Assembly: GCA_021413905.1 (NCBI GenBank)
Contig: JAIOPO010000003.1
Location: 1 to 49,870 of the forward strand
Length of the DNA stretch: 49,870 bases
Source: Candidatus Nomurabacteria bacterium
GTDB lineage: Bacteria > Patescibacteriota > Minisyncoccia > Phycocordibacterales > UBA9973
Reading direction: 5' to 3'
Position 1 is the first letter of the stretch, and every line of letters begins with the position of its first letter. A program made the translations under genes and the position numbers. Below are positions 9,158 to 49,011 of this stretch, one piece after another. Under the pieces are notes generated by a model. It was given only the letters and a program-made list of their open reading frames with translations, searched no databases and was not told where the DNA came from.

Positions 9158-9776
9158 CTTTATATTCTACTACATTACTTGCTTGTATTTCTATGGCGTC
9201 GGCTTTGCGTAATTTATTGATATTTTTTTTATTTAAAATATCGTAATGTTTTATTTTGTCGAGTTCTTCATCTATACCCCACATATCTTGCATTTCATTT
9301 TTCCAATTATCTTCAAAAATATTCAAATCCAAAACATCAGAATATTGTCTTAAAGTTTTAGAACCATTTGTTAAAAAATATTCGTGAAAATAAGACAAAG
9401 CTAATTCACGGATATTTTTATAAATTGGATCTCGATAACGCAAAACACTATGATTTGTCTTTGACAATGCTCCCCAATACCCATCTTTTTTAAATGGTGC
9501 TACAACATGATCAAAATCATTCTTAGTAGTCTTTAAATGAAGCAATAAAGGCTTATAACCCTGCAAAGACAACATAAAAGCACCTAATACAGCACCTTCT
9601 ATACAATGAGCATTTCCCTCTCGCAATACACGCAAAGGAGATTTGAAAGTATCTTTCACAAAACCTTTTTCGTCTTTTTCAAAATTAAATTTTAAACTAT
9701 TTAAAAAGTCTTGAACTTTCAAAGGAGTATTTATCTTTTTCAAAAATGCAATTTCTTTTTTTGTAAAATTTTCCAT
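9147..9776 (-). CDS. hypothetical protein, possible transglutaminase-like Cys-His-Asp fold
   Basis: GNAHCIEGAVLGAFML (Cys) followed by DFDHVVAPF (His). Pattern match only. Confidence 0.3.
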   Translation of the reverse strand: MENFTKKEIAFLKKINTPLKVQDFLNSLKFNFEKDEKGFVKDTFKSPLRVLREGNAHCIEGAVLGAFMLSLQGYKPLLLHLKTTKNDFDHVVAPFKKDGYWGALSKTNHSVLRYRDPIYKNIRELALSYFHEYFLTNGSKTLRQYSDVLDLNIFEDNWKNEMQDMWGIDEELDKIKHYDILNKKNINKLRKADAIEIQASNVVEYKDAL

Positions 9777-9778
9777 TT

Positions 9779-10555
9779 CTATTTAAATAATAAAAAATAA
9801 AATACAATAGCTATAAAGATACGATAAAGTCCAAAAACAATAAAATTATTATTTTTTATATATTTCAACAAAAATTTAATACTAAACAAAGCTGTTATAA
9901 ATGCAACAACAAAACCTATAAGTAAAAAACCAATTTTATCAAAAGTAAAAGAAGAATGATTTTTTAATATATCCAAACCACTAGCAGCAAGCATCGTCGG
10001 TACTGCCAACAAAAAAGAAAATTCCACGATTGTCGCGCGATTCAAACCCAAAGACAAACCTCCGAAAATACTCGCAGCCGAACGTGACACTCCGGGAATA
10101 ATAGCAATAGATTGAAAAATTCCTATAATAAAAGATTGTTTATATGTTATAACATCGACACTCTCTATAAAATCTTTCTTTTGTTTTTTCTGATACCATT
10201 TTTCGAAAAAAATAAAAATGATACCTCCTATAAATAAAGAAAATAAAACAACCATTGAATTACCCAATAAATATGTTTTTGCAATTTTATAAAATACCAA
10301 ACCTATAACACCTGTAGGAATAAATGCGACGATTAATTTTTTAATATTTTCTAAATTCCAAAGTTTCTTCCAGTACAAAAATACAACGGAAAAAATAGCA
10401 CCCAATTGAATAATTATTTCAAAACTTTTAGTAAAAAGACTATTTTCTATGTTTAATAAATTACCTACCAATATCATATGACCAGTAGAAGAAATAGGCA
10501 GAAATTCTGTCACCCCTTCCACGACACCTAATATAATACTATGTAAAATATTCAT
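9779..10555 (-). CDS. uppP: undecaprenyl-diphosphate phosphatase
   Basis: GVVEGVTEFLPISSTGHMIL and PGVSRSAASI are the two conserved BacA/UppP blocks. Confidence 0.9.
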   Translation of the reverse strand: MNILHSIILGVVEGVTEFLPISSTGHMILVGNLLNIENSLFTKSFEIIIQLGAIFSVVFLYWKKLWNLENIKKLIVAFIPTGVIGLVFYKIAKTYLLGNSMVVLFSLFIGGIIFIFFEKWYQKKQKKDFIESVDVITYKQSFIIGIFQSIAIIPGVSRSAASIFGGLSLGLNRATIVEFSFLLAVPTMLAASGLDILKNHSSFTFDKIGFLLIGFVVAFITALFSIKFLLKYIKNNNFIVFGLYRIFIAIVFYFLLFK

Positions 10556-10558
10556 ATA

Positions 10559-11110
10559 TTAATTGGTCTTTTTTTGTTTAATATGAACAACCAAACATAA
10601 TACAAGCAAAGAAAAAAATACAGTCAATGCAAGCATTGGAATGGATATATACCCTCCAAATTCTGATACTAATTGTTGATAACATGACACACCTGAAGCA
10701 TCACAAGGGAGAGAAGAAGCTGACTCGCTAAAATAATACTCAAAATTATGATATACAGAAATTAAAAATCCTGCACATAATAATGGCAATGTGTAACGAA
10801 CAACTTTTTTATCTTTATCCCAAAAAGCCACTCCAAAAATAAATAACATTGGAAAAATGAAAATTCTCTGCCACCAACATAAATAACAAGGCAAAAAATT
10901 AATGATTTCAGAATATACCAAAGGAAAAACTGAAGCGCATAAAGAAATAAAAAAACCAATAGCTAAAAAATGTTTCTCAACATAATCCAAAAATATATTT
11001 TTCTTTGATCCAAAAAACAATATCAACAGAATTACAACTGAAAAAATCTGCAACAGTATTGCCCCAATTCCTAAAAAAATATTCAAATAATGGACTGTTT
11101 CAAAATTCAT
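10559..11110 (-). CDS. disulfide bond formation protein B family (DsbB/BdbC-like)
   Basis: Four TM segments, CYLCWWQRIFIFP (CxxC in the first loop) and a second Cys pair (LPCDASGVSC). Confidence 0.75.
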   Translation of the reverse strand: MNFETVHYLNIFLGIGAILLQIFSVVILLILFFGSKKNIFLDYVEKHFLAIGFFISLCASVFPLVYSEIINFLPCYLCWWQRIFIFPMLFIFGVAFWDKDKKVVRYTLPLLCAGFLISVYHNFEYYFSESASSLPCDASGVSCYQQLVSEFGGYISIPMLALTVFFSLLVLCLVVHIKQKKTN

Positions 11111-12232: not shown

Positions 12233-12724
12233 TTACTGCTTTGCTTTTAAATATATCGGTAATGACGCTATAAACCCTCCGCAATATTTATTCTTATTTC
12301 CTTCCATATCTTTTAAAATATCTTCGGATTTTGTCCAGTAAACATCTTTCACTTCTTCAATTTGGAGTTTCCCAGGATCTGCAACACAACGAAAAATGTC
12401 AAAAACATGAGCTACTATTTTGCCAGGATATTTTTCTTCTTTAGTAGCGCCGTGACCGACATAAATTAATTCAACTCCATTTATGCCAAGCTCTTCACTA
12501 AGTTCTCTTTTTGCCGCTTCTTCGTAAGATTCTCCTTCTTCAACGTGCCCTGCGGAAGAATGATCAAGATAACCGTCAGTCCTGACTTGCACAATAATTT
12601 CATTTTGACTATTCTCAACATAAACGACAGCAATACGGTGTGGCACGCCACTTTTATGTGCCTCCTCCTTTAGCATTGTTCCTATTATTTCATCTTTATC
12701 ATTTACAACTACGACGTTAGACAT
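12233..12724 (-). CDS. NUDIX hydrolase
   Basis: Nudix box GHVEEGESYEEAAKRELSEELGI. Confidence 0.8.
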   Translation of the reverse strand: MSNVVVVNDKDEIIGTMLKEEAHKSGVPHRIAVVYVENSQNEIIVQVRTDGYLDHSSAGHVEEGESYEEAAKRELSEELGINGVELIYVGHGATKEEKYPGKIVAHVFDIFRCVADPGKLQIEEVKDVYWTKSEDILKDMEGNKNKYCGGFIASLPIYLKAKQ

Positions 12725-12816: not shown

Positions 12817-12887
12817 TGGGAGATCGTCTAACGGTAGGACACCTCCCTCTGGAGGAGGTTATCTTGGTTCGAGTCCAAGTCTCCCAG
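12817..12887 (+). tRNA. tRNA-Gln (anticodon CUG)
   Basis: Hand-folded cloverleaf: acceptor TGGGAGA/TCTCCCA (U1-A72), D stem GTCT/GGAC, anticodon arm CCTCC-CTCTGGA-GGAGG, T arm CTTGG-TTCGAGT-CCAAG. CCA is not encoded. Confidence 0.9.
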
Positions 12888-13056
12888 CAGTTATGTGAAA
12901 GTTTCTGGTGACCGAGACACGCGGTTATCTATCCTGAAATGGCATATCCGCTGAGAGCGGTATTGGGTTCTTTTTAGTTGATGTAAAATATGATAACATT
13001 AGTCTAAACTTATTAAGTTTTGTTCATACTAAGTTGATGGTTATATTAAAAATATT

Positions 13057-14109
13057 ATGAAAAAAATTATCATTACTGGAGGTTGTGGATTTATTGGTGC
13101 AAATACAGCAGAGTATTATCTTAAAAAAGGATATAAAGTTATTGTCCTAGATAATCTTTCTAGAGTCGGTTCTAAATACAACTTACAGTGGCTAAAAGCA
13201 TTTAAGGATAATTTAGTATTTTCTAAAATAGACATACGGAATTACAAATCTCTGTTAAAAGTTTTTAAAGAAAACGAACCTGATTTAATTTTACATTTAG
13301 CTGGGCAAACTACAGTAACTGGTTCAATCTTGAATCCAAGAGAAGATTTTGAAATTAATGCTGTTGGCACCTTCAATGTTTTAGAAGCCATGAGAAATGG
13401 AGCACATAAGGCTACTTTGATTTATTCTAGTACAAATAAGGTAATGGGTGAATTGATCGACATACCTATTCAAGAAGAAAAAAGTAGATATTCTTTCAAG
13501 AATTTAAAAGGAATTTCTGAAAATCATCCATTGAGTTTTTGTAGCCCATATGGTTGTTCAAAAGGTTGTGGCGACCAATATGTTTTAGATCATGCAAGAA
13601 TTTATAAATTAAACACTGTCGTTTTTAGGCAATCATGTATTTATGGTTCTCGGCAGTTTGGTACAGAAGAACAAGGATGGCTTGCTTGGCTCATGAGTTC
13701 CTTAATTTTTGATCAGTCTGTATCTTTGTATGGTACTGGTAAACAAGTTAGAGACATTCTACATGTCAGTGATTTAATAAGTGCTTTTGATTTGGCATTT
13801 AAAAATATTAAAACAACAAAAGGAAAAGCATATACTATTGGAGGAGGTTCAGAATTTTCTGTTTCCATTATAGAGTTCTTTAAAATTTTAGAAAGTATTT
13901 CAGGAAAGAATTTTAATTACAGTATGAAACCTTGGCGATTGGCAGATCAGAAAGTCTATATTTCCGACGTGTCTTCTGCAAAGAAAGATTTCAATTGGAT
14001 TCCAAAAGTTAGCCCAAAAGAAGGTATAAAAGACATGTATGATTGGGTTTTACAAAATAAACTCCTTATAGATAAATCTGGAATATTAAATAATAAAACA
14101 AAAAAATAA
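13057..14109 (+). CDS. NAD-dependent epimerase/dehydratase (extended SDR, CDP-paratose 2-epimerase-like)
   Basis: TGGCGFIGAN (GxxGxxG) and YGCSK (YxxxK). The N-terminal LDNLSRVGSKYNLQWLK block resembles the RfbE-like subgroup. Confidence 0.8.
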   Translation: MKKIIITGGCGFIGANTAEYYLKKGYKVIVLDNLSRVGSKYNLQWLKAFKDNLVFSKIDIRNYKSLLKVFKENEPDLILHLAGQTTVTGSILNPREDFEINAVGTFNVLEAMRNGAHKATLIYSSTNKVMGELIDIPIQEEKSRYSFKNLKGISENHPLSFCSPYGCSKGCGDQYVLDHARIYKLNTVVFRQSCIYGSRQFGTEEQGWLAWLMSSLIFDQSVSLYGTGKQVRDILHVSDLISAFDLAFKNIKTTKGKAYTIGGGSEFSVSIIEFFKILESISGKNFNYSMKPWRLADQKVYISDVSSAKKDFNWIPKVSPKEGIKDMYDWVLQNKLLIDKSGILNNKTKK

Positions 14110-14121
14110 TTGTTATTTATC

Positions 14122-15030
14122 ATGGAAAAAGGACCTGAAAATATAATAAATATCGATAGGAAATATCTACAAATTGATAGAGAAAACTTAGAGCCCCAAC
14201 TTGAAAAAATATCAGATGTTCTGTTAAAAATTTCAGAGGATGATCGTTTCGACACCTTCTCTCATTTTGCACAACTCGCAGACATCTCAGCTAACGAAAA
14301 TATTGATCCTGCTAATAGCTTGAAATTGTTAGAAAATTGGAATTATGAAAGTATAGATTTTATTCAAAAAGAAAAATCTGGTAATTGTGTTGATTTTGCA
14401 ATCTTATGTCAAAAAATGCTAGCGGATGTCGGTGTGCCTACAACAATTATTGGAAGATTTGCAGAAAAAAAGGATTACGCTCCAAGACAGGCTGACTTTT
14501 TAAAGTATCGTCATATTACCCCAATGTATGCAAATGAATCTCATGGATTAAAAGTATTTGTATTGGAGCCAAGTTGGAAATTTTCTAAACCAGTGCCCGT
14601 TGCTCTAGGGGTAACTTCTATTTATAAAGATTGGATATCAGAAGTATCAAGTGTTAACGGCGCTCAATTTACTCAGAAAACATACAATCCACAAAAAAAT
14701 AAACACAGAGAAAGATTATTCGATATTCATCCACTTGATGTTGATTTTTGTCGTCAACTAACTAAACGCTTTATTCGAGTACCTAGAGAGTTAAAAATAC
14801 TCAATACAAATGATGAAGAAATAATTCAATTCGTGAAATTTGATGCCAAAAAGCAAATGTTTGTCACAAACATAGAGGGCGTTGATCCCGAGTTTTCCCC
14901 AAATGCAATTACTCCAGAACAGTCGAGGGTATTAGAAGAAGTACTAGGAAAACCTGAATTAACTGTGTATCTGTCTAAAGTTTTTAATTTTATAAAATCA
15001 CTGCCGAATGATTTTTGGATAAAAGATTAA
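14122..15030 (+). CDS. hypothetical protein, transglutaminase/NAT-like Cys-His fold (putative)
   Basis: GNCVDFAILCQKMLADVGVPTTIIGRF resembles the transglutaminase-core Cys block. A downstream YRHITPMY supplies a candidate His. The track start at 14110 is TTG. Confidence 0.35.
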   Translation: MEKGPENIINIDRKYLQIDRENLEPQLEKISDVLLKISEDDRFDTFSHFAQLADISANENIDPANSLKLLENWNYESIDFIQKEKSGNCVDFAILCQKMLADVGVPTTIIGRFAEKKDYAPRQADFLKYRHITPMYANESHGLKVFVLEPSWKFSKPVPVALGVTSIYKDWISEVSSVNGAQFTQKTYNPQKNKHRERLFDIHPLDVDFCRQLTKRFIRVPRELKILNTNDEEIIQFVKFDAKKQMFVTNIEGVDPEFSPNAITPEQSRVLEEVLGKPELTVYLSKVFNFIKSLPNDFWIKD

Positions 15031-15048
15031 TATTAATTTAACAAAAAT

Positions 15049-16245
15049 ATGAAAATATGTATTTACGCTCATAGTTTTCCACCTATCATTGGTGGTGCCC
15101 AAACTTACCAATATAATCTAGCTATTGGTTTAGGTAAGTTAGGTCATGAGGTCTTAGTTTTGACAGGCGACATACCTGATTCCTTAAAATTAAAGATTAA
15201 AGATTATAAATCATCTTATTTCAAAGTTGTAAGAGTTCCGGGCTTTCGTGAATCTATAAAAATGAAAGCACCCTTTAGAGATTTATTGATCGATTCATTT
15301 AATATTTTAAAAAAGTTTGACCCTGATATTATTTACTCTAATGGATTTATTCCTTGCTTACTAATCTCTATGATAAAAGATAGTTTACGTGCTAAGCATA
15401 TTTTTAGCTACCACTCTACTCCAGAACTCGACGTAAACAAACTGGTTGGTATTTGGCCTGGAAATTTAGAGTTTGAATTGTCTATAGCAAAATTTATTTT
15501 CAAGCAAAGATCTTTTGATGCTTATTTGGCTTGTAGTAACAACTACCTTAATACAGTAAAAAATAATGTTGATGCGAAAATCAAAAACGCACACCGTATT
15601 TATTATGGTGTTGACATGAAAAAGTTTTCTTTTGAGATAAAAGTTAATAGAGAAAAGTATGGCTTCAGCGACAGTGATTTTATTGTTCTTTGCCCTGTTA
15701 GATTTATTGAAAGAAAAGGAATTCTAGATATTTTAAAAGCAGTCAGTATATTAAAGAAAGAAATTCCAAATATAAAGCTTTTAATCCCTACAAGCAAGCT
15801 TTCTACAAATGACAAATTTGCTCAGTCAATCCTAATGTTAATTAAAAAGTTAAAAATAGAAAATTATGTATCTATAAGAGCTGATGAATTTGGTATTGAA
15901 GATATGCCGAAGGTTTACGCTCTTTCAGATATAATGGTTTTTCCTTCATATTCAGAAGGGCTAGGGATAATATCTCTAGAATCAATGTCGATGAAAAAAC
16001 CAGTAGTGGCTACAAATATCGCTGGTATTAATGAAGTTGTTATACACAACAAAACAGGAATGTTAGTAAATATTAAAAGTCCCAAGCAAATTGCTGAATC
16101 AGTTAAGTTAATACATGATGACAAAAATTTACGAGACCGTCTGATTAAAAACGCATATTCTATAACAGAAAAGGAATTTGAATTAAATAAGCAAGTTAAA
16201 AAAGTTGAAAAACTTTTTATTGAAGTATATGGAAAAAATAAATAA
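15049..16245 (+). CDS. glycosyltransferase family 4 (GT-B fold)
   Basis: The C-terminal EX7E region FPSYSEGLGIISLESMSMKKPVVATNIAGINEVV is typical of Glycos_transf_1. Confidence 0.8.
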   Translation: MKICIYAHSFPPIIGGAQTYQYNLAIGLGKLGHEVLVLTGDIPDSLKLKIKDYKSSYFKVVRVPGFRESIKMKAPFRDLLIDSFNILKKFDPDIIYSNGFIPCLLISMIKDSLRAKHIFSYHSTPELDVNKLVGIWPGNLEFELSIAKFIFKQRSFDAYLACSNNYLNTVKNNVDAKIKNAHRIYYGVDMKKFSFEIKVNREKYGFSDSDFIVLCPVRFIERKGILDILKAVSILKKEIPNIKLLIPTSKLSTNDKFAQSILMLIKKLKIENYVSIRADEFGIEDMPKVYALSDIMVFPSYSEGLGIISLESMSMKKPVVATNIAGINEVVIHNKTGMLVNIKSPKQIAESVKLIHDDKNLRDRLIKNAYSITEKEFELNKQVKKVEKLFIEVYGKNK

Positions 16246-16849
16246 TAATTTAGTTAATAAAATAAAAAAATATTTAAAAAATGGGAAAAGGCCATTAATT
16301 ATTGTTATATCGGGTGTTAATGGTGCAGGAAAGACCACGCTAGCTTTTCATATCTCTAATATTTTAGAGATAAAACAACGTGTTAATTTAGGTGCAATTG
16401 TAAAAACATTAATTGCAATGAAGCCAAAAAATAAAGACTTTGCAAAAATGAATAATTATTTTTTGCCTCTTAGCGAAAAAGAAATCCAAAAACAATCTTT
16501 GATTATCAGTAAGGCAACTAATTCGATGATCAAGAAGTACGATGAGGGTGGGGTATCTTGTATTATAGAAGGTGTCCAGTTGCTTACTCGATATTTAGAT
16601 AGTAGAGCAATCCATTTCCATATAGTGGTTAATGATGTAAAAAAATACAAAAAACAATTGAAAAACAGCGATACAAGAAATCCGCGGAATGTGACAGATA
16701 ATGAATTTACGAATTTATTAAAAGTTAACGAAATTCTAAAAACAGAAATGAATTTCCCCACAGTTTATTTATTAGATAACAGTGAGTCGATAAACGCAAT
16801 AATCAACAAAGTATTAAAAGACATAATTATTAATCTTAATTTAAAATAA
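16229..16849 (+). CDS. P-loop kinase (2-phosphoglycerate-kinase-like / AAA_33-type)
   Basis: Walker A IIVISGVNGAGKTTLA. Small alpha/beta protein. The ATG at 16229 overlaps the GT4 stop by 17 nt (the track TTG start is at 16205). Confidence 0.55.
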   Translation: MEKINNNLVNKIKKYLKNGKRPLIIVISGVNGAGKTTLAFHISNILEIKQRVNLGAIVKTLIAMKPKNKDFAKMNNYFLPLSEKEIQKQSLIISKATNSMIKKYDEGGVSCIIEGVQLLTRYLDSRAIHFHIVVNDVKKYKKQLKNSDTRNPRNVTDNEFTNLLKVNEILKTEMNFPTVYLLDNSESINAIINKVLKDIIINLNLK

Positions 16850-16855
16850 AAATTT

Positions 16856-17839
16856 ATGCCAATTGAATTTAACGAATTAAAACAACTATCAAAACAAGCA
16901 AGAGATGTATCAAATATTCTTAGAAAAGAACTCGGAGAAATGCCACATAAAATAGAAGGTAATTTTATAGCATTCTTCGGTCGCCAATTTAATCCTGATT
17001 ATAAATGGAACAGTGCTTTAAAGCCATTATGGTCTGGTTTTTACATTAAATACAATGACTTAGAAATGATGGTTGATCCTGGAATCAACATACTAGAAAG
17101 AGCAGAGAGGATTGGTGTCAATTTAGCTCGTACCAACACCTTGTTTGTTTCTCATGGACACATTGACCATGGTCATGATGCCAATGTAATCGCTGAAATG
17201 GCCGCTTATAGAGAGGATTCTAAGTTAAGAGTACTTATGTCTGAGCGCACTCAAGAAGAGAAAATTATGAGTCATTATCACTCTCAGTCACAAGATGGAG
17301 TAGAGTTAGTTTTGATAGATAAAATGGAAGAAATTGATTTGAGTGCTAATATTAAACTCAAATCAGTAGAAGTTACGCATACAATTGCTGGATCTTTTGG
17401 CTTTGTTTTAGATATAAATGGATTAAAAATTGGGTATACAGGAGATACTGGTTTTAATGCAACATATAAAACCATTGACGGCAGAGAACTTTCAGCAACA
17501 GAAAAGATTCCAGATAAAAAAGAAATAGAAGAACCGGGAGCTTTTAATGATAAACTAAAAAAAGTTTTTAGTGAAGTTGATATCTTAGTTTTTAATTTGC
17601 ATGATGTAGAATTTAGAAAACACACAAAGCATAACTTGTATCATTCTACTGTGTCTGATGCTGTAAATGTTCTACGAGATTCAAAAGTAAAAAATTGTTT
17701 TTTTGAACACTTTAATCCTCATGGATGTTTAGGTGTAGAGTATCCACAAAAAGTAAACCAATACATTAAAGAATCAACTGGTAAGGAAACCCTACTCGTT
17801 GCTTTAAATGGACATGTTGTTAATTTGGACAATATTTAA
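16856..17839 (+). CDS. MBL-fold metallo-hydrolase
   Basis: HxHxDH motif VSHGHIDHGHD. Later VEVTHT and GDTG blocks. Confidence 0.7.
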   Translation: MPIEFNELKQLSKQARDVSNILRKELGEMPHKIEGNFIAFFGRQFNPDYKWNSALKPLWSGFYIKYNDLEMMVDPGINILERAERIGVNLARTNTLFVSHGHIDHGHDANVIAEMAAYREDSKLRVLMSERTQEEKIMSHYHSQSQDGVELVLIDKMEEIDLSANIKLKSVEVTHTIAGSFGFVLDINGLKIGYTGDTGFNATYKTIDGRELSATEKIPDKKEIEEPGAFNDKLKKVFSEVDILVFNLHDVEFRKHTKHNLYHSTVSDAVNVLRDSKVKNCFFEHFNPHGCLGVEYPQKVNQYIKESTGKETLLVALNGHVVNLDNI

Positions 17840-17841
17840 TT

Positions 17842-18894
17842 ATGCCTAACGAAAGACCTAAATTTTTTGTAGATAAGGTTATGGAGCAAAAGGAAGATGA
17901 CCCGCATCCATATGACGCCCTAATTCATGTTGAAAAAGACACAGAACGAATGGGTTTTGTACAAGATAATTTTGTGTGTGAAGTAGTAAATGAAAAAGGA
18001 CAAGAATCAAGTATTAGATTTCCTACAGCTATTACGTATTATAAAAGTAATGGGTCTGAACAGTGGGCAAAAAAGTTATATGGATACAAGGAAGCTGTAC
18101 AAACTGCTTTAGAATCAGAAGATATGAATTATTACGTTGTTTATGATCCATCATCAGAACTAAGTTTTCTCGCTATGCCTTTTGACAATAATACTAAAAT
18201 CGCACGTAGTAGAGATAATCTTAAGTTATTTTTGAAAAATGGAAAACCTGAAGACACAGAATCATTAATGAGATTAATGTCAGAATTCAAAGATGTCAAT
18301 TTTGGATTATTTGGATCTAGATTTGTAAAAGATTTTAACTATTCGAATAAACCCGATATAGATTTAATAATTTATGGTCCAGATGATTTACAAAAAGTAG
18401 TTGATTCACTTGAGAATGATGATAGTTTGAGAAATAAAATTGGTCTTAGTTTTAAAGATTCAAGTAGATTTGATCAATACGTTGCATATTACATGGAAAA
18501 GTTCAATTTAACAGAGTCGGAAGCAAAAATTATGTTTTCTAGACGTAGACGCTATATGCTAAACCCTGGAATTAAACTTTCAATCAATTGCGCCTTACCA
18601 GACAATAATCTAAATAAAAAGATTCCCATAACTATTGGCTCAAAAAAGATACATGATATTTCTATAGAAGGTACGGCACTAGACACTTCATTATCTTCAA
18701 ATATGCCAAGAGTTTTTTCCATAGAGAGCGAAGGTGGAAAAATAGATGTTGTTACCGGCATATGGTCCTTAAAAGATTTTATTAGAACTGGCGACAAAGT
18801 AAAAGTTACAGGGGCATTAAGAGAATCAAATGGTATTACTTTTATTTCTTTAGAAAAACCAAGTGATATCATAAAACCAATTACGCATGATTAA
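17842..18894 (+). CDS. Pol-beta-superfamily nucleotidyltransferase domain protein with C-terminal beta-barrel-like region
   Basis: FGLFGSRFVKDFNYSNKPDIDLIIYG fits G[SG]-x(10-13)-DxD. The C-terminal GDKVKVTGALRESNGITFISLE looks OB-like. Confidence 0.45.
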   Translation: MPNERPKFFVDKVMEQKEDDPHPYDALIHVEKDTERMGFVQDNFVCEVVNEKGQESSIRFPTAITYYKSNGSEQWAKKLYGYKEAVQTALESEDMNYYVVYDPSSELSFLAMPFDNNTKIARSRDNLKLFLKNGKPEDTESLMRLMSEFKDVNFGLFGSRFVKDFNYSNKPDIDLIIYGPDDLQKVVDSLENDDSLRNKIGLSFKDSSRFDQYVAYYMEKFNLTESEAKIMFSRRRRYMLNPGIKLSINCALPDNNLNKKIPITIGSKKIHDISIEGTALDTSLSSNMPRVFSIESEGGKIDVVTGIWSLKDFIRTGDKVKVTGALRESNGITFISLEKPSDIIKPITHD

Positions 18895-19849
18895 TAGTAA
18901 AAATAACATTGATATGGTTACAGATGAAGGAAAGTTAATTAAAAGCCTAAATACAATTAGCGGTAAATTTAATAGTGAAGCTTATTTATACAAATATCTG
19001 GATAATTATTATGTAGTCAGGAAAATAGGTAAACAATATAATTTATCACCTGAACAATTGGTTATTTTAGAAAAAAATCTACACACTTATTATGTCTTTT
19101 TAAAAAGATATGTACCCATAAATTTACCCAAGACTTTTTTTACTAAAATAGATAAAAATGATGATGCGATTTGTTTAGTAACAGAATATTTTCCTAAAGG
19201 AAAAATCACAGAAGTTAAAAATATTTCTAAGAAATTAAAATATTTTAAAATTGTCTCAAAGTTAATAATTAAACTATCTAGCTCTAATAATAATTTATAC
19301 TTAAATAAGTTGACATGTTCTATTGATCCAAATCCCGATAACTTTTTTATAAATTCTAATAGTAAAGTTGTTTATAACGATTTCACGCCGCCACTGTATA
19401 GGACAGATGGAAAATGGTTAGAGTTTAGAAGACAAGACGAATTGCATACTAAAAAAACCGACAAGGAAAAACGATACTTCACAGGATTTAATCTACTTTT
19501 AGTGTTTGTGAACAAAACAAGGATTCATTTACCTTTTTCTGACTACTTGAAATTTGTTACTTGGATATCAAAGGAAATACAAAATTCCAATTTATCAAGT
19601 GAGAATAATCTTGGAAAATTCCCAGAAGTTTTTAATGAAATTTATATTAAAAAAGGAGTTGATTTAAATGTTTTTGAGAAGTATGCTGTATTGAGAGATT
19701 TATTGAGATTTACTGTATCTTTTAATAAAGATTTAACAAGTGATCAGATCGAAGTAATTTATAAAAATTCCAAAGTGCCAGATGGTATTAAAATTTTAAC
19801 TAAAAAATTATATGCAAAAAATCAAAGTAGCAATAGTAGGGTTGGGTAA
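18887..19849 (+). CDS. protein-kinase-like (APH/choline-kinase-type) phosphotransferase, putative
   Basis: YYVVRKIGK (beta3 Lys), VTEYFPKG (hinge), SIDPNPDNFFI (catalytic loop D-x4-N) and VYNDFTPP (DFG-like). Confidence 0.45.
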   Translation: MINSKNNIDMVTDEGKLIKSLNTISGKFNSEAYLYKYLDNYYVVRKIGKQYNLSPEQLVILEKNLHTYYVFLKRYVPINLPKTFFTKIDKNDDAICLVTEYFPKGKITEVKNISKKLKYFKIVSKLIIKLSSSNNNLYLNKLTCSIDPNPDNFFINSNSKVVYNDFTPPLYRTDGKWLEFRRQDELHTKKTDKEKRYFTGFNLLLVFVNKTRIHLPFSDYLKFVTWISKEIQNSNLSSENNLGKFPEVFNEIYIKKGVDLNVFEKYAVLRDLLRFTVSFNKDLTSDQIEVIYKNSKVPDGIKILTKKLYAKNQSSNSRVG

Positions 19850-20852
19850 TTGTGCTAGTTCTCTAGTCCAGGGTATTGAGTTCTATAAAAATACTTATAA
19901 TAAAACTGGCTTAATAACCGAAGTAATTGGTGACTACAAAGTTGGCGATATAGAAATTGTAGCTGTTTTTGATGTCGATAAAAGAAAAGTCGGCAAAGAT
20001 ATATCAGAAGCTATATTTTCTGAACCGAATTGCACTAAAAAGTTTTCTGATGTTCCGCATAAAAATGTAATTGTAAGCAAAGGTCATGTTCTAGATGGAG
20101 TATCAATGTCTATGACAGATTATTTTCTAGTGGATGATAGTCAGGAGACATCTGATGTCGTTGAGATTTTAAAAAGTTCACAGGCTGAAATGTTTGTATG
20201 CTATTTACCTGTAGGTAGTACAAAAGCGGCCAGATTTTATGCTGAATGTGCCTTAGAAGCAGGAGTTGGTTTTATAAATGCAATCCCAGAGTTTATCTGC
20301 TCAGATCAAGAATGGATTAATAAATTTAAAGAGAAAGGGCTTCCATGTGCTGGTGACGATATAAAGTCACAAGTTGGAGCTACTATCTTACATAGAGTGA
20401 TCACAAGATTGATACAAGATAGAGGTTTTAAGATTGATAATACCTACCAACTAAACATAGGAGGTAATACTGATTTTAGAAATATGCTAGATGAGAGAAG
20501 ATTAGAGAGCAAGCGAATATCAAAAACTCAAGCAGTAGTATCAAATCTTGATGAAGGAGAAAATATTTCTACTCGCATAGGACCATCTGACTTTGTAAGT
20601 CATTTAAAAGATAACAAAGTTTGCTATATAAATGTAAAAGGTACTCAATTTGGGGATGTTCCTTTTGAGCTTGATTTAAAACTTTCTGTTGAAGATAGCC
20701 CGAATAGTGCAGGGTGTATTGTAGATGTTATTAGATACATGAAAGTTGCTTTAGAAAAAGGGATATCGGGTAGTTTAGAAGGAGTGAGTGCTTATTATTT
20801 TAAGTCTCCAGCAGTTCAAATGCGAGAAAATATTGCAAAAGAGAAACTATAA
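19812..20852 (+). CDS. ino1: myo-inositol-1-phosphate synthase
   Basis: KVAIVGLGNCASSLVQGIEFYK N-terminal Rossmann block, plus CAGDDIKSQVGATI, NIGGNTDFRNM and SKRISKTQ, characteristic of short bacterial/archaeal MIPS. Confidence 0.85.
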   Translation: MQKIKVAIVGLGNCASSLVQGIEFYKNTYNKTGLITEVIGDYKVGDIEIVAVFDVDKRKVGKDISEAIFSEPNCTKKFSDVPHKNVIVSKGHVLDGVSMSMTDYFLVDDSQETSDVVEILKSSQAEMFVCYLPVGSTKAARFYAECALEAGVGFINAIPEFICSDQEWINKFKEKGLPCAGDDIKSQVGATILHRVITRLIQDRGFKIDNTYQLNIGGNTDFRNMLDERRLESKRISKTQAVVSNLDEGENISTRIGPSDFVSHLKDNKVCYINVKGTQFGDVPFELDLKLSVEDSPNSAGCIVDVIRYMKVALEKGISGSLEGVSAYYFKSPAVQMRENIAKEKL

Positions 20853-21237: not shown

Positions 21238-22413
21238 ATGAAAAAATTCTTAAATAATAAAATCGTAACAATAACGAGCTTTGCATTAGTGCTCGGTTTT
21301 GCAGGATTGATCACAGTTTTAGCGGCCACAAATCCATCACTAGGAATGTCCAATTCATTTGGCATACTTTCCAGCACATACACAAATATATCAGCAGGCA
21401 CAGTAAATGGAGATGTAGGATACACTACCCCACCTGTAACACCAACAACTGTCACAGGATTAATACATGTAGCAGATATTACTTATAATCAAGCTGGTTT
21501 AGATCAAAACAGTTCTTTAGTAGACTTAAACAGTCAACCTTGTGATTTTAATTTTGGTTCCGCGACAGATCTTAGTCTAGAATCACAACCATTAATCCCA
21601 GGAGTTTATTGTGTCACAGGAGCTCAATCCATAGGTACTGGAGGAATAACTCTTAACGGATCCGGAACTTATATATTCAGATCTACAGGAGCTCTTACTA
21701 CAGTAACAGGTTCGTCTGTCACACTAGCCGGTGGCGCATCAGCATGTGATGTCTTTTGGACACCAATACAAGCGACAACTCTAGCTGCAAATACAGATTT
21801 CACAGGAACAGTAATAGATGCAGCAGGTATTACTGTAGGAAGCACTGTCACATGGCTTGGAAGAGCTTTAGCATTCGGAGGTACTGTAACCACAAACACA
21901 GACACAATAACAGTACCGACTTGCACAGTACCAGCACCAGCAACTCTTCATGTTATTAAAACAGTAGTCAACCATAACAGCACAGGAGTTTCTTCTGATT
22001 TTAATTTATATGTTAAACTTTCTGGAGTAAATATAGCAGGAAGTCCACTAGCTGGAGCTGTCACCCCAGGAAATACTTATACAATATCAGCTGGTACATA
22101 TGTAGTAAGCGAAGATTTAAATACAGCTTATTCATCAAGCTTCAGTGGAGATTGTAATTCAAATGGAACCATAATTTTATCTGCTAGTGATGATAAGACT
22201 TGTACAATAACAAACACATACATAGTACCAACAGTTAACAGTGGTGGGAGAAATGGAGGTGGAGGAGGTTTCTTATTAACTCAACAACAAGCGCCAACAC
22301 AACAACAAATAATTACACCAATCTCAAATACAACAACGACATCTTCTCCTGTTATATTTCCAATACCTCCTAAATTTCCAAACACAGGATTTGCCCCTAG
22401 AAATATATTTTAA
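21238..22413 (+). CDS. secreted DUF3494 (ice-binding-like beta-helix) protein with C-terminal beta-sandwich domain and PNTG tail
   Basis: Signal/anchor peptide. DUF3494 blocks LGMSNSFGILSSTYTN, GTVNGDVGY, PGVYC, TLNGSGTYIFRSTGALTT, ACDVFW, GRALAFGGTVT. Then an LHVIKTVVNHN...CTITNTY domain, a Gly run, and the C-terminal FPNTGFAPRNIF. Confidence 0.75.
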   Translation: MKKFLNNKIVTITSFALVLGFAGLITVLAATNPSLGMSNSFGILSSTYTNISAGTVNGDVGYTTPPVTPTTVTGLIHVADITYNQAGLDQNSSLVDLNSQPCDFNFGSATDLSLESQPLIPGVYCVTGAQSIGTGGITLNGSGTYIFRSTGALTTVTGSSVTLAGGASACDVFWTPIQATTLAANTDFTGTVIDAAGITVGSTVTWLGRALAFGGTVTTNTDTITVPTCTVPAPATLHVIKTVVNHNSTGVSSDFNLYVKLSGVNIAGSPLAGAVTPGNTYTISAGTYVVSEDLNTAYSSSFSGDCNSNGTIILSASDDKTCTITNTYIVPTVNSGGRNGGGGGFLLTQQQAPTQQQIITPISNTTTTSSPVIFPIPPKFPNTGFAPRNIF

Positions 22414-22431
22414 TTTTTACAAATTAAAATT

Positions 22432-23046
22432 ATGAAAAAAAAATCTATCCATTTTAAAAAACGGATTATTTTGACTTCTGTTTTACTTATATTTTTTGTT
22501 CTAATTATTTATTTATTTTTTTATGGTCAGAAAGTTGAATCAAAAAAAATAAATTCTAAAAACAATACGAGTATAAATATCACAGAAAATAAAACATCGA
22601 GCATACCAATAAATATCAAAATACCGAAAATAAATGTGAATACTAATATAGAATCAGTTGGAATTCTATCAGATGGAGCTATGGGTGTTCCCAACTCACC
22701 TGAAAATACAGCTTGGTTTAATTTAGGGGTAATACCCGGAGATATAGGCAGTGCTGTGATTGATGGTCATTCAGGATGGAAAGACAATATCCCCGCTATA
22801 TTTGATGATCTATATAAACTTAAAAAAGGAGACAAGATATATATAACAAACGATAAAGGTATCGTAAATACTTTTGTTGTTACAAAAACAAAAATTTATA
22901 AATCAAATGAAGACACAACTAGTGTATTTATTCCAAACGACAAAATATCACATCTCAATTTGATTACGTGCACTGGTATTTGGAATTCCGTAGAAAAAAG
23001 TCACACGGACAGGCTTGTGATATTTAGCGATAAAGAAATTCTATAA
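22432..23046 (+). CDS. sortase (class F/E-like)
   Basis: N-terminal TM segment, VIDGHSG (catalytic His), LNLITCTG (TLxTC Cys) and HTDRLVIF (Arg). Confidence 0.8.
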   Translation: MKKKSIHFKKRIILTSVLLIFFVLIIYLFFYGQKVESKKINSKNNTSINITENKTSSIPINIKIPKINVNTNIESVGILSDGAMGVPNSPENTAWFNLGVIPGDIGSAVIDGHSGWKDNIPAIFDDLYKLKKGDKIYITNDKGIVNTFVVTKTKIYKSNEDTTSVFIPNDKISHLNLITCTGIWNSVEKSHTDRLVIFSDKEIL

Positions 23047-24993
23047 AATAAACTTAAAGAATCTAAATACAGCAAAACCTAAACCAGAAATTACTGCTCC
23101 GAGAGCTATCGGAGTCGGTATTTTGGTTTTAGTATTTTTTACAGAAGCAGACAAAACAGAATCATTTATTTCTTTTTTTACTTCTGAAATATCTTTTTTA
23201 TTTACAACATCCACATTATTAATATTTTGATCATTAATATTAAATTTATTTATTACATCTTCTTTAACAAGATTATCTGAGATTATTTCTTTTTTTACTT
23301 CTGATACAATTACCGGTTCTATAATAATTTCTTTTTTATCTTCTGTTGCTATTGTTTTTATTTGCTCATTATTTTCAACTGATCCACCCCCAGACACAGA
23401 TAAAGGCTTGGAAACATATTGCATTATATTATTCCAAGATTTACCCAATACAGCCGATATAGCATAACTAGTAATCCAAATTCTATTCTGAATATTTTCA
23501 TTTGTTGATATTGCTCCCCCATCTGTTGCTTGCTGAAAACTCAAATAATCCAAACCAGTATGTCCATTTTTAGACCAAGACAAACCAACAGAATTCATAG
23601 CTTGCAAAACCCAACTCGTACTTGATACATTACCCCAACCTCCATCTGGATTTTGTAAATTGGATAAATAATTTTCTGCTTTTAAAAGCGCATTATTTAC
23701 ACCATCGATAGAATTAAAATTATTCAAAGCCATAATTCCGGCTGAAGTTAAATCTATACTATTTTCGAAAGACCCATCAGGGTTTTGTTTTAAAAGAAGA
23801 AAAGAAATATCTTTTTGTATAATTTCATCATTTGATGTATATCCGGAATTTGCCAAAGGAATTAAAGCAAAAATATCATCGTTTAATAAATTACTGTCAC
23901 CAAATTGAGTGCCGTCAAAACTATTAACAATATTATTTATATAATCCACACCATTAAAATTATAAGGATTTTTATTTAAAGACAATAAGGTTATCGCTCT
24001 TCGTTCATTGTCAGTCAAAATAGAACTTAAAGAATTATTTATATTTAAAAAAGAAAGTATTGAATTTATTGCATCATCATTTATATTATTCGCAGACAAA
24101 GCTATTGCAGACCAATCAGTATACATATTGCCACCAAAAGATCCGTCTGGATTTTGCTTACTCTTTAAAAAAGAAATTGCATTTGTTAAATTAAAAACAT
24201 TTGATATTAATGGTCCCCCACCCCCACCACCTGAAATCACAGGATCTGGCTTTTGTTTTACTAATAAATTATAAGAAGGAAAATAATAATCTTCTACTAT
24301 CCCAAGTGTATAAGAATCTGAATTTTCAATAATTATATTTGCAAGACCCTGATCATCTACTAGATTCGAAGATATTACTGTTGGATTCCATGCATCATCA
24401 GGATTTGGCACAGTCACGCCGACAGAAATTCCAGTCAATGGATTCCAAATATTATTTTCATAATCATATTTTTCTGCTTTTACAAAAACACTATCTCCGA
24501 CATTCATTTCATTTTTATCCAACACTAAATGGTGAGGTGTACCAAAATAAATACCGACAGTTTCTCCACCTGTGAGCAAAACATTCTCTATGCTTTCCCA
24601 TGGAGTTGTATTTCCAACTGCATATTGCCAATTGTCACAATTTTCTACCCTATCCACAGAAGAAATACATTTTAAATAAAAAGAACCAAAAGAATCATAA
24701 TATTGTAAATTTGAAACAGAAAATGAATCATTGGAAATATCTATCATTGATAAAAGACCTAACACACTTCTGGAACTCACATTATGAGGATTACCTAAAT
24801 TATCATTGATTTGCAAAATACTCTCATCGGGCAATGGTACGGAGCCTTGCCAGATAACACTGTCTCCATTACGGATAATAAAAGTTTCATTTGGAATTTC
24901 CGGAGGAACAGGTATTTCATCATCAGCTAAAACAATATTAAAATTAAAAAATAAAACAAATAAAATAACAAAAACAAATAAAAACTTTTTCAT
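23041..24993 (-). CDS. surface protein: DUF4430 domain + Ig-like domain + prenyltransferase/terpene-cyclase-like alpha/alpha toroid repeats + C-terminal TM anchor
   Basis: Signal peptide. DUF4430-like NWQYAVGNTTPW...GETVGIYFG. A GGGGGG linker. Four QxxDGxF/W repeats (KQNPDGSFGG, KQNPDGSFEN, LQNPDGGWGN, QQATDGGAIS). C-terminal hydrophobic IALGAVISGLGFAVFRFF. Confidence 0.7.
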   Translation of the reverse strand: MKKFLFVFVILFVLFFNFNIVLADDEIPVPPEIPNETFIIRNGDSVIWQGSVPLPDESILQINDNLGNPHNVSSRSVLGLLSMIDISNDSFSVSNLQYYDSFGSFYLKCISSVDRVENCDNWQYAVGNTTPWESIENVLLTGGETVGIYFGTPHHLVLDKNEMNVGDSVFVKAEKYDYENNIWNPLTGISVGVTVPNPDDAWNPTVISSNLVDDQGLANIIIENSDSYTLGIVEDYYFPSYNLLVKQKPDPVISGGGGGGPLISNVFNLTNAISFLKSKQNPDGSFGGNMYTDWSAIALSANNINDDAINSILSFLNINNSLSSILTDNERRAITLLSLNKNPYNFNGVDYINNIVNSFDGTQFGDSNLLNDDIFALIPLANSGYTSNDEIIQKDISFLLLKQNPDGSFENSIDLTSAGIMALNNFNSIDGVNNALLKAENYLSNLQNPDGGWGNVSSTSWVLQAMNSVGLSWSKNGHTGLDYLSFQQATDGGAISTNENIQNRIWITSYAISAVLGKSWNNIMQYVSKPLSVSGGGSVENNEQIKTIATEDKKEIIIEPVIVSEVKKEIISDNLVKEDVINKFNINDQNINNVDVVNKKDISEVKKEINDSVLSASVKNTKTKIPTPIALGAVISGLGFAVFRFFKFIL

Positions 24994-24994
24994 A

Positions 24995-25498
24995 CTATTT
25001 CAATTTCCACTCAATAATATCACCATCTTGTGGAATATAATAAGAAACACCGACAGATGCTTCTTTGCCATTAACATAATAAAATAAATATTTCCCATTT
25101 CCACCGTGCAAATCATTTATATCAGAAACAAAAAAACCTAAATCCGGATATGATTTACCTGAAAAATTTAATTCTCCTTTTTTTTGCTCAAACATTAAAA
25201 TATCATAAAAAGAAGTATTTTTTTCTGTTTTTATTTTTATATTATAATTACCAATTATTAAATTAACAGATATTGGATTTACGAATAGGATTTCTTGTTT
25301 TTGCTTATTTTCTATATTTTTTAATTTTTCAGTTTTTTCTATTATATTTAATTTATTTTGAATATTTAATTCCGGTTTTTTTTCCAGCACTTCTATCTCT
25401 TTATTTTTATATGAATAAAAAATAATTAATAAAATAAAAATTGCAAAAACTATCGCAAAGATTATAGAAATATTTTTTTGTATTTTACTTTTTTGCAT
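24995..25498 (-). CDS. membrane-anchored DUF4430 domain protein (transcobalamin beta-domain-like)
   Basis: N-terminal TM segment. The C-terminal GFFVSDINDLHGGNGKYLFYYVNGKEASVGVSYYIPQDGDIIEWKL fits the DUF4430 pattern. Confidence 0.7.
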   Translation of the reverse strand: MQKSKIQKNISIIFAIVFAIFILLIIFYSYKNKEIEVLEKKPELNIQNKLNIIEKTEKLKNIENKQKQEILFVNPISVNLIIGNYNIKIKTEKNTSFYDILMFEQKKGELNFSGKSYPDLGFFVSDINDLHGGNGKYLFYYVNGKEASVGVSYYIPQDGDIIEWKLK

Positions 25499-25529: not shown

Positions 25530-25575
25530 CATTATATAAAAAATATTATAAATATTTTCCTGCTCGGGACTCATA

Positions 25576-25660: not shown

Positions 25661-25722
25661 AATATTAAATTTTTAAATACTCACAAAATAATTATATACC
25701 TATTGAAAAAATTTGCAATAAA

Positions 25723-48974: not shown

Positions 48975-49011
<37 letters not shown>

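Follow-up and report, generated by a model that had tools for sequence, protein, structure and literature searches.

An eight-gene cluster in a Candidatus Nomurabacteria genome as a candidate pathway to a soluble inositol-containing phosphoglycoside

The stretch of DNA analyzed here (hereafter the window) covers 49,870 nucleotides (nt) from a Candidatus Nomurabacteria bacterium (GenBank assembly GCA_021413905.1, contig JAIOPO010000003.1, positions 1 to 49,870 of the forward strand). Eight open reading frames (ORFs) on its plus strand, between positions 13057 and 20852, form a tightly packed cluster that ends in a gene for a myo-inositol-1-phosphate synthase (MIPS). Comparison with related loci points, tentatively, to a pathway for a soluble glycoside built on inositol phosphate. 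All eight ORFs were confirmed at the following coordinates, and their products are predicted to be:

g1, 13057..14109, plus strand: extended short-chain dehydrogenase/reductase (SDR), a C2-epimerase of nucleoside diphosphate (NDP)-hexoses resembling cytidine diphosphate (CDP)-tyvelose 2-epimerase
g2, 14110..15030, plus strand: accessory protein, weakly transglutaminase/papain-like
g3, 15049..16245, plus strand: GT4 retaining glycosyltransferase (GT-B fold) of the BshA/MshA class
g4, 16205..16849, plus strand: P-loop small-molecule kinase of the 2-phosphoglycerate kinase (2PGK)/mevalonate-3-phosphate 5-kinase family; overlaps g3
g5, 16856..17839, plus strand: metallo-beta-lactamase (MBL)-fold hydrolase, phosphodiesterase branch (RNase Z/PhnP/Apyc1-like)
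g6, 17842..18894, plus strand: orphan three-part protein with an N-terminal domain, a Pol-beta-type nucleotidyltransferase (NTase) core and a C-terminal oligonucleotide/oligosaccharide-binding (OB) fold
g7, 18887..19849, plus strand: orphan protein-kinase-like (PKL; APH/ABC1-like) phosphotransferase; 8-nt overlap with g6
g8, 19812..20852, plus strand: short-type MIPS (inositol-3-phosphate synthase); 38-nt overlap with g7

With the mechanically called ORF starts, the junctions measure 0, +18, -41, +6, +2, -8 and -38 nt. Because the N-termini of g2 and g4 are conserved in their homologues (MEKGPE... and MEKINN..., respectively), the true starts are probably the ATG codons at 14122 and 16229, and the junctions then become +12, +18, -17, +6, +2, -8 and -38 nt. 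The close packing on one strand with three overlapping junctions, as described in the initial annotation, is borne out with these corrected starts. The motifs quoted there were likewise all found in the translations: GGCGFIG and YGCSK in g1, GNC...RH in g2, EGLGIISLE (E-x7-E) in g3, GVNGAGKTT in g4, HGHIDHGHD in g5, GS-x12-DID in g6, DPNPDNF...NDF in g7, and VAIVGLGNCASSLVQG with GGNTDF in g8. No transmembrane segment was found in any of the eight proteins (maximum Kyte-Doolittle 19-residue mean 1.37), and all are predicted to be soluble. The source genome is low in GC (~30%), and the GC content of the cluster is the same as that of its surroundings.

Profile searches place g8 inside the MIPS family, as had been claimed for 19812-20852. 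The protein scored 108.2 bits (E 3e-31) against Pfam Inos-1-P_synth (PF01658), for which the cut-off is 27 bits, and matched TIGR03450 ("mycothiol_INO1") over its full length at 9.7e-130, with 432.8 bits against a mycothiol-specific equivalog cut-off of 638 bits. Residues 3-345 aligned with Mycobacterium tuberculosis Ino1 (1GR0) at 5.5e-110, and in that alignment the NAD motif VGLGNCASSLVQG at the N-terminus is conserved, as is the GGNTDF segment. These matches indicate a bona fide short-type MIPS and not the actinobacterial mycothiol-linked subtype. A MIPS-like cyclitol synthase of the Ari2 type was ruled out by setting the 1GR0 score against that of the five-membered-cyclitol-phosphate synthase 6K96 (2.5e-55). 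Outside the clade of the cluster, the nearest MIPS sequences are those of other Patescibacteria (66-67%), followed by those of Hadarchaeota and Methanoperedens (55-59%). The cultivated patescibacterium Minisyncoccus archaeiphilus PMX.108 (locus L074, NZ_AP038758.1 836590-857654) has a MIPS gene that stands by itself, with none of g1-g7 nearby and a product 54% identical to g8, and therefore inositol phosphate synthesis exists in Patescibacteria independently of the cluster. Two short contigs binned as "Bacteroidales" (L015, JBBAAT010000388.1) and "Legionella" (L018, SCSO01000364.1) encode MIPS proteins 90% and 68% identical to g8, respectively, and are probably mis-binned Patescibacteria contigs.

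Both g1 and g3 belong to sugar-handling families. The g1 protein matched Pfam GDP_Man_Dehyd (8.9e-50) and Epimerase (1.4e-46), and among solved structures its matches to the CDP-tyvelose 2-epimerases of Thermodesulfatator (TaTyvE, 9RL0; 6.4e-98) and Salmonella (TyvE, 1ORR; 3.5e-91) compare with 5.4e-36 for the best GalE/RmlB match. It also carries the TNK segment (STNKV), which positions the hexose in TaTyvE (PMC13098431), an enzyme that interconverts CDP-glucose and CDP-mannose (PMC13098431, PMC7851689). Because of the TyvE similarity and the TNK segment, g1 is most likely an NDP-hexose C2-epimerase of the Glc/Man type, perhaps CDP-linked; the SDR family given in the initial annotation stands, and its "epimerase/dehydratase" label is corrected to a CDP-tyvelose-2-epimerase-like enzyme. 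Orthologues of g1 in the other cluster loci share 60-87% identity. The g3 protein matched Glycos_transf_1 (4e-31, 108.3 bits) and Glyco_transf_4 (4.6e-17, 63 bits), both above threshold. It aligned over its full length with the BshA model (1.9e-24; 86 bits against an equivalog cut-off of 273.7) and in its C-terminal half only with the MshA model TIGR03449 (1.3e-20; 73.7 bits against 462.5). Its best solved relatives are the BshA structures 2JJM, 3MBO and 5D00 (full length, 2.8e-20 to 3.8e-17), and the MshA structures 3C4Q and 3C48 reached 3e-9 only. By these matches g3 is a GT4 retaining glycosyltransferase of the BshA/MshA class.

Two putative kinases of different folds are encoded by g4 and g7. 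The g4 protein matched the NCBIfam 2PGK model PRK04220 at 4.4e-9, with 36.1 bits against an equivalog cut-off of 343 bits. All 12 members of its family match the 2PGK model (best 6.2e-18), 11 match a second 2PGK model and three match mevalonate-3-phosphate 5-kinase; GxxGxGKT, IKQR..LG..KT and IIEGVQL are invariant. The relation of g4 to 2-phosphoglycerate kinase is thus one of family level, not of equivalogs. Known 2PGK and mevalonate-3-phosphate 5-kinase members put a second phosphate on an already phosphorylated small molecule. The AlphaFold2 model of g7 is of high quality (predicted local distance difference test [pLDDT] 89, predicted template modeling score [pTM] 0.89), and Foldseek returned 1460 kinase-domain matches in the PDB at E <= 0.001, many with probability 1.0, at template modeling scores of ~0.4. 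The model thus supports a PKL fold for g7, in agreement with the phosphotransferase first proposed. The Pfam ABC1 match (0.0016; 18.1 bits against 22.9) stayed under threshold, as did those to all other Pfam kinase families, and therefore no specific kinase family can be assigned; a distant member of the g7 family matched DUF6206 at 3.8e-7. The invariant residues of the family, S-x-D147-x2-P-x-N152-F and Y-x-D165-F-x-PP, include the catalytic-loop pair D147/N152 and the DFG-like D165. Homologues of g7 amount to 38 clusters in a set of 5.8 billion sequences; each is at least 46% identical to it, and they lie largely on contigs that also bear g6. A 305-residue protein beside the MIPS gene of locus L019 was rejected as a g7 relative (hhalign probability 0.07%).

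The g5 protein scored 49.6 bits (4.8e-13) against Pfam Lactamase_B_2, for which the cut-off is 27 bits, with the HxHxDH motif present as HGHIDH. It is not an RNase Z equivalog (2.8e-11; 43 bits against a 293-bit cut-off), its single-sequence search of the PDB gave a marginal RNase ZS1 match (E 0.0059), and its orthologues carry precomputed Anti-Pycsar_Apyc1 Pfam hits. We place g5, from these matches, among Lactamase_B_2-type MBL proteins near RNase Z and the Apyc1-like phosphodiesterases, as an equivalog of neither.

Taken alone, g6 matched NTP_transf_2 at 0.013 (16.3 bits against a Pfam cut-off of 21). When its family and a sister family were considered together, 25 of 34 members matched Pol-beta NTase models (NTP_transf_2 at best 1.8e-6; Polbeta, 14 members; MTPAP-like_central, 12), and G158, S159, D172 and D174 were invariant in all 34 sequences. 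The PDB search with the family profile gave Trf4 as the best match (5.1e-4), followed by MNT (0.014) and ANT. Single-sequence PDB searches with g2, g4, g6 and g7 yielded nothing useful, whereas profile searches did. The AlphaFold2 model of g6 has a pLDDT of 62 overall and mostly 70-90 for residues 120-350, and only its C-terminal ~90 residues found Foldseek matches, to the OB folds of RPA32, RPA14, LysRS and Stn1. The protein can be divided into an N-terminal beta-rich domain (residues 1-115, highly conserved), the Pol-beta core (~120-260) and the OB fold (~265-346). Family profile and model together indicate a Pol-beta-type NTase core with an OB-fold tail; the nucleotidyltransferase of the initial annotation is retained and its "barrel-like tail" becomes an OB fold. 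A TiaS-like reading of this combination was discarded, as no TiaS domain matched in the 34 members. Homologues of g6 make up 33 clusters in the same 5.8 billion sequences, none less than 51% identical to it, and 93 proteins, including a ~337-residue sister family in other Patescibacteria, were recovered when its profile was run against 1.84 billion representatives. As judged from these searches, g6 and g7 are orphan families confined to Patescibacteria. The most remote g6 relative examined (P0111, 440 residues; L014 4820-10342) lies in a very different setting, between two radical-SAM enzymes, a HAD hydrolase and a class-Ib aminoacyl-tRNA-synthetase-like gene, which might give a clue to the ligand of the NTase-OB scaffold. 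In one Nomurabacteria contig (MAG_121, L002 10001-11054), a frameshift near 10806-10810 divides g6 in two, a sign of decay.

The g2 protein matched Transglut_core below threshold (0.0081; 16.9 bits against 23), as did all six family members (at best 6.6e-4), and its only PDB matches aligned GNCxxFA with the Cys277 region of TG2 (E = 1.3). The motifs GNC, RH and LEPSW are invariant, with C93, H135 and E153 as a putative Cys93-His135-Glu153 triad. As regards the Cys-His transglutaminase/NAT fold initially assigned to g2, the Cys and His are invariant in the family and the Transglut_core score stays under the Pfam threshold; the likeness of g2 to transglutaminases and papains is weak.

The cluster recurs in ~15 distinct Paceibacterota/Nomurabacteria loci, with 46-91% protein identity and unrelated flanks. 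These loci come from genomes and metagenomes, and the eight proteins were traced in them by tblastn; a pattern scan detected the cluster in 5 of 185,579 species representatives. Because it is conserved across loci, chance adjacency is excluded. The arrangements are:

L001, L002, L003/4 and L096: complete eight-gene order, differing flanks
L007: g2 upstream of the SDR gene; MIPS convergent, on the opposite strand
L009: MIPS between the MBL gene and g6
L006, L099 and L106: without g2; a His_Phos_1 phosphatase and a convergent methyltransferase present; MIPS before or after both (beyond both in L006)
L008/L113, L100 and L114: as L006/L099/L106, with no MIPS within the flank examined
L105/L115: no MIPS within the flank examined; GT4 cut by a Mutator transposase

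The eight-gene order proposed as a unit in the initial annotation was thus found again elsewhere, and conservation of the cluster as a co-directional set is supported. MIPS is linked in 11 of the ~15 informative loci, and the linkage is kept through at least three rearrangements, which argues for functional coupling, not for an obligatory one. A gene that changes position and strand yet stays linked is what selection for co-inheritance would be expected to produce. The g2 gene occurs in seven loci, all of them with MIPS. In all co-directional loci for which genes were called, g3 overlaps g4 and g6 overlaps g7, which suggests that the products of each pair may form a complex. His_Phos_1 orthologues lie inside the cluster in L006, L008, L099, L100, L106 and L114. 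In L105 (849-3041) and L115, a Mutator-family transposase stands in place of the N-terminal half of the GT4 gene, another sign of decay.

More distant modules share part of the gene set:

L012: carbamoyltransferase, GT4, P-loop kinase, MBL, g6-like, g7-like, SDR; no MIPS
L005: extra kinase, carbamoyltransferase, GT4, P-loop kinase, MBL, g6, SDR; no MIPS
L010: SDR, GT4, MBL, g6-like, P-loop kinase, GT9, methyltransferase, on mixed strands; no MIPS
L013: APH, SDR, MBL, g6-like, g7-like, P-loop kinase, GT9; no MIPS
L011: GT4 (44% identical to g3), PIG-L deacetylase, second GT4, Exo_endo_phos, P-loop kinase, g6-like; no MIPS

In L011 the Exo_endo_phos protein stands in the position of g5. The invariant core, as far as gene content tells, consists of a GT4 (or GT9) glycosyltransferase, the 2PGK-like kinase, the NTase-OB protein, a phosphodiesterase, the PKL kinase and the SDR enzyme. 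MIPS is left out of this core because the distant modules hold none; together with g2, His_Phos_1, the methyltransferase, the carbamoyltransferase and PIG-L, it is one of several lineage-specific additions, all of them predicted small-molecule or sugar enzymes.

The g3 protein is 36-49% identical to the GT4 proteins of the distant modules and to those of a second, different kind of cluster:

L020 7369-11059 (metagenome-assembled genome of Moraniibacteriota): NTP_transferase (NDP-sugar synthase), GT4, NUDIX (with an NDPSase_N domain), MIPS
L112 6001-9563 (related metagenome contig): NTP_transferase, GT4, NUDIX, with MIPS at the end
L110 6001-8506: the NTP_transferase-GT4-NUDIX trio without MIPS

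The GT4 proteins of L020 and L112 share 36-37% identity with g3 along its full length (~225 bits), far closer than any solved GT4. The g3-type subfamily is thus joined to MIPS in two different architectures, and this double linkage is the best available support for inositol-3-phosphate as the acceptor of g3. It also lends independent weight to the MshA-like logic that the initial annotation had proposed for the GT4 enzyme. The L020/L112-type cluster resembles a pared-down form of this chemistry, in which a GT4 enzyme would act on inositol phosphate. Because a canonical NDP-sugar synthase replaces g4-g7 in these two loci, part of g4-g7 may serve donor activation; the donor nucleotide of the L020 synthase could not be read from the source names, which are generic only.

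Our reading of these observations is that the cluster encodes a pathway for a soluble inositol-containing phosphoglycoside, a reading that we put forward with reserve and that falls a little short of probable; the individual assignments of g4-g7 are graded much lower. A Patescibacteria-specific cytoplasmic module would build a phosphorylated glycoside, and a Paceibacterota branch would have recruited MIPS, placing the glycoside on inositol phosphate. By homology, g8 would convert glucose-6-phosphate to inositol-3-phosphate. The NAD-dependent C2-epimerase g1, assigned to its family by homology, could interconvert a donor of the NDP-glucose/NDP-mannose type, possibly CDP-linked. Given the repeated GT4-MIPS linkage, g3 would transfer the hexose to inositol-3-phosphate, forming a hexosyl-inositol-phosphate, and this mycothiol-like glycosylation is the most economical reading by analogy. 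The product of g4, translationally coupled to g3, may phosphorylate the acceptor or the product. In the weakest step of the scheme, g7 might add a further phosphate, g6 a nucleotidyl group (as a phosphodiester or NDP), and g5 might resolve or recycle the phosphodiester made by g6. The accessory proteins (g2, the His_Phos_1 phosphatase, the methyltransferase and the carbamoyltransferase) could trim or decorate the product. An in-cluster His_Phos_1 fits a two-step route in which glycosyltransfer to a phosphorylated acceptor is followed by dephosphorylation, as established for GpgS/GpgP, TPS/TPP and MshA/MshA2. The pairing of GT4 with a PIG-L/LmbE deacetylase in L011, which resembles MshA/MshB and BshA/BshB, also speaks for the scheme. 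The cluster contains no exporter or lipid-carrier enzyme, and because of this and the lack of transmembrane segments the product is most likely a soluble metabolite (a solute, a cofactor-like compound or a signal) and not an envelope polymer.

One extension of this scheme, which we regard as quite unlikely, would make g6 the first Pol-beta-fold enzyme to nucleotidylate a sugar or inositol phosphate, and the cluster the source of a novel nucleotide-linked inositol glycoside acting as a cofactor, signal or host-interaction molecule. The g6 product would then be NDP-inositol or a nucleotidyl-hexosyl-inositol. The g1 enzyme might in that case act on a CDP-linked cyclitol, epimerizing C2 beside the phosphate and turning myo- into scyllo-inositol.

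Several observations weigh against the inositol phosphoglycoside pathway. MIPS is absent, within the flanks examined, from 4-5 of the ~15 loci (L008/L113, L100, L114 and L105/L115) and from the distant modules L010-L013, and therefore the core does not strictly need a linked MIPS. Genomes whose cluster is without MIPS include GCA_036517375.1, the Nomurabacteria MAG TH-11nov19-85 and JAACPR01. The description of the operon as "built around" MIPS fails for the same reason, and also since the gene changes place within the cluster, being terminal, convergent or between the MBL gene and g6. The loci are phylogenetically related, so that their counts are not independent events. Gene neighborhood is the sole source for the proposed acceptor of g3, and the equivalog cut-offs of both MshA and BshA lie far above the g3 scores. 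No Pol-beta NTase is known to make NDP-sugars or NDP-alcohols, and residues 1-115 of g6 were poorly modeled by AlphaFold2. The RPA- and aminoacyl-tRNA-synthetase-type (anticodon-binding) OB fold of the g6 tail, the Trf4 match of the g6 profile and the RNase Z proximity of g5 are hints of nucleic acids, not sugars. Finally, no phosphatase could be recognized in the cluster of the window, and tblastn with the His_Phos_1 proteins of L006, L008 and L009 gave no match in the window.

The absence of MIPS from part of the loci leads to a different explanation, in which the core makes or modifies a glycoconjugate free of inositol. Its product could be a phosphorylated sugar carried by some other small acceptor, by a protein or by a component of the wall, in analogy to the lipopolysaccharide core with its GT4/GT9, WaaP/WaaY kinases and HldD. 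MIPS would then be a frequent neighbor with another purpose, for instance inositol lipids or a solute, or one of several interchangeable acceptor suppliers. The MIPS-less close loci and distant modules agree with it, the latter carrying GT9 heptosyltransferase-like genes, APH, carbamoyltransferase and PIG-L instead, and so do the standalone MIPS genes that lie apart from the module in other Patescibacteria, M. archaeiphilus included. However, MIPS overlaps g7 by 38 nt in the window, stays linked through the rearrangements and is present wherever g2 is, and an unrelated architecture again pairs the GT4 subfamily with MIPS; moreover, membrane, export and lipid-carrier genes are lacking and all the proteins are predicted to be soluble. 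We consider this explanation unlikely, though less so than the two that follow.

The nucleic acid hints could also mean that g4-g7 act on RNA, with g6 tailing or modifying an RNA or tRNA end, g5 trimming and the kinases phosphorylating ends, while the sugar genes form a separate sub-operon or glycosylate RNA. This would account for the nucleic-acid-binding OB folds matched by the g6 tail (RPA32/14, the LysRS anticodon-binding domain, Stn1), for Trf4, a poly(A) polymerase, as best PDB match of the profile together with the 12 MTPAP-like_central members, and for RNase Z as the best NCBIfam and PDB match of g5. These matches, however, are all weak ones that do not go beyond the level of superfamilies (E 5e-4 to 6e-3; 43 against 293 bits), and OB folds also bind oligosaccharides and mediate oligomerization. 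The g4 protein falls in a small-molecule kinase family, not with polynucleotide kinases; GT4 and g4 are coupled and adjacent in nearly all loci, tying the sugar and phosphate halves together, and the accessories are all small-molecule enzymes (carbamoyltransferase, PIG-L, His_Phos_1, GT9). We therefore regard a role in RNA metabolism as very unlikely.

Equally little credence can be given to a variable conflict or secondary-metabolite island that makes an aminoglycoside-like pseudo-oligosaccharide or a nucleotide-derived effector against hosts or competitors, with the NTase, kinase and MBL proteins in tailoring or self-protection: it would explain why g6 and g7 share their folds with the ANT/APH antibiotic-modifying enzymes, the GT4-conflict and Anti-Pycsar_Apyc1 Pfam hits on orthologues, the highly variable accessory content (carbamoyltransferase, methyltransferase, GT9, APH), the transposases or integrases adjoining some copies (L009, L105) and the varying genomic position among relatives, but a PADLOC scan of the eight proteins returned only noise at P-loop level for g4 and no hit for the remaining ones, the cluster offers neither an aminotransferase nor an inosose dehydrogenase with which to make an aminocyclitol, exporters and resistance transporters are lacking, and the GC content is that of the surroundings, where the neighbors are housekeeping genes.

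The surroundings of the cluster in the window were also surveyed. Upstream lie tRNA-Gln (12817-12888) and a divergent gene for a NUDIX hydrolase (12233-12724, minus strand) that adjoins the cluster. Other NUDIX genes occur near the cluster at L001 4159-4650, L006 4609-5082, L009 761-1691 and L105 8227-8967, as well as inside the L020 cluster (9339-9995). NUDIX was rejected as a ninth member, as the Paceibacterota copies are ~30% identical to each other save for one pair and orthology is unsupported. A consensus promoter scan was uninformative (49 sites against 47 expected). For the 169-nt gap between tRNA-Gln and g1, an Rfam search in E-value mode gave no credible riboswitch or leader (best E 0.34), and a leader RNA before g1 was dismissed as well, with a fold z-score of -0.93 and a GC-rich piece conserved in no locus. 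Downstream, a 385-nt gap separates the cluster from a secreted ice-binding-like (PF11999) protein gene followed by a sortase gene (21238-23046, plus strand), probably a surface-protein pair unrelated to the cluster. Elsewhere in the window, an AdoCbl-II (cobalamin) riboswitch (25575-25668, minus strand) scored 47 bits, which exceeds the gathering score. It is located upstream of two minus-strand genes, 24995-25498 and 23041-24993, the second of which encodes a 650-residue secreted repeat protein. The 23S rRNA gene (45513-49506, minus strand) measures ~4.0 kb against a 2.9-kb model. It contains a group I intron at 45812-46010 (Rfam, 67.7 bits) and, within its span, a 159-residue ORF (46868-47347) that is possibly a homing endonuclease in a second insertion; 23S rRNA insertions of this kind are typical of the candidate phyla radiation (CPR).

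No characterized pathway was found that matches the cluster gene for gene, as the initial annotation had stated, and literature searches on MIPS or inositol pathways in CPR/Patescibacteria returned nothing relevant. The enzymes of the known MIPS-fed routes, also reported as lacking, were indeed absent: Pfam and NCBIfam searches of the eight proteins detected no CDP-alcohol phosphatidyltransferase, LmbE deacetylase, Cys ligase or GlmU-type nucleotidyltransferase, and a regular-expression scan of the whole window no signature of a CDP-alcohol transferase, inositol monophosphatase or LmbE protein. If our reading is correct, the cluster would represent a new bacterial MIPS-fed pathway beside mycothiol, phosphatidylinositol and its mannosides, di-myo-inositol phosphate and the inositol lipids of Bacteroides. 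It would also give functions to two orphan families (the NTase-OB protein and the PKL kinase) and add a new branch to the 2PGK kinase family. Patescibacteria (CPR) are metabolically minimal and are believed to draw most of their building blocks from hosts, and because of this a conserved investment of six to eight genes and ~8 kb in one soluble metabolite would be notable.

Among the systems compared, the lipopolysaccharide inner core (WaaG GT4, WaaC/F GT9, WaaP/WaaY PKL kinases, HldD SDR) shares its combination of folds with the distant modules L010 and L013, as well as a glycosylate-then-phosphorylate logic. The cluster, in contrast, has no lipid A/3-deoxy-D-manno-octulosonic acid machinery or membrane components, and its NTase-OB, MBL and 2PGK-like proteins are without lipopolysaccharide counterparts; to our knowledge, lipopolysaccharide is not expected in Patescibacteria. 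The cyclic 2,3-diphosphoglycerate (cDPG) pathway and the mevalonate pathway of Thermoplasma share with it the family-level matches of g4 to 2PGK and mevalonate-3-phosphate 5-kinase, although the scores are far under cut-off and the cluster includes neither cDPG synthetase nor mevalonate genes. The CDP-tyvelose system is similar in the full-length match of g1 to its 2-epimerase (1ORR; Thermodesulfatator 9RL0) and in the TNK segment, whereas no 3,6-dideoxyhexose genes (RfbF/G/H/S) lie near g1.

The di-myo-inositol-phosphate pathway (MIPS, IPCT and DIPPS) likewise joins MIPS to a nucleotidyltransferase and ends in a soluble inositol phosphate, a possible solute here as well. IPCT is a GlmU-type NTP_transferase and DIPPS a membrane CDP-alcohol phosphatidyltransferase. 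The cluster differs in that g6 is of the Pol-beta type, none of its proteins matches NTP_transferase or CDP-OH_P_transf or has a transmembrane segment, and no frame of the window contains DGxxARx8Gx3Dx3D.

The closest solved relatives of g3, the BshA enzymes of bacillithiol synthesis (2JJM, 3MBO, 5D00), are GT4 proteins that act on a small soluble acceptor, although the cluster in the window lacks BshB and BshC and its acceptor is presumably inositol phosphate, not malate. The first steps of mycothiol synthesis (Ino1, MshA and MshA2) combine a short-type MIPS with a retaining small-acceptor GT4, as g8 and g3 do, and His_Phos_1 is present in some relatives of the cluster. Unlike mycothiol synthesis, the cluster lacks an LmbE/MshB deacetylase (the window contains no AHxDD-type motif), the Cys ligase MshC and the MshD (GNAT) acetyltransferase; its C2-epimerase implies a donor of the Glc/Man type instead of GlcNAc, and it adds four phosphoryl or nucleotidyl enzymes. 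By analogy, the cluster would work most like the first mycothiol and bacillithiol steps and the two-step solute glycoside pathways, while belonging to none of them, and we rate it as a candidate glycoside pathway based on MIPS and a GT4 enzyme, with two orphan families and a set of phosphoryl/nucleotidyl tailoring enzymes that has no precedent.

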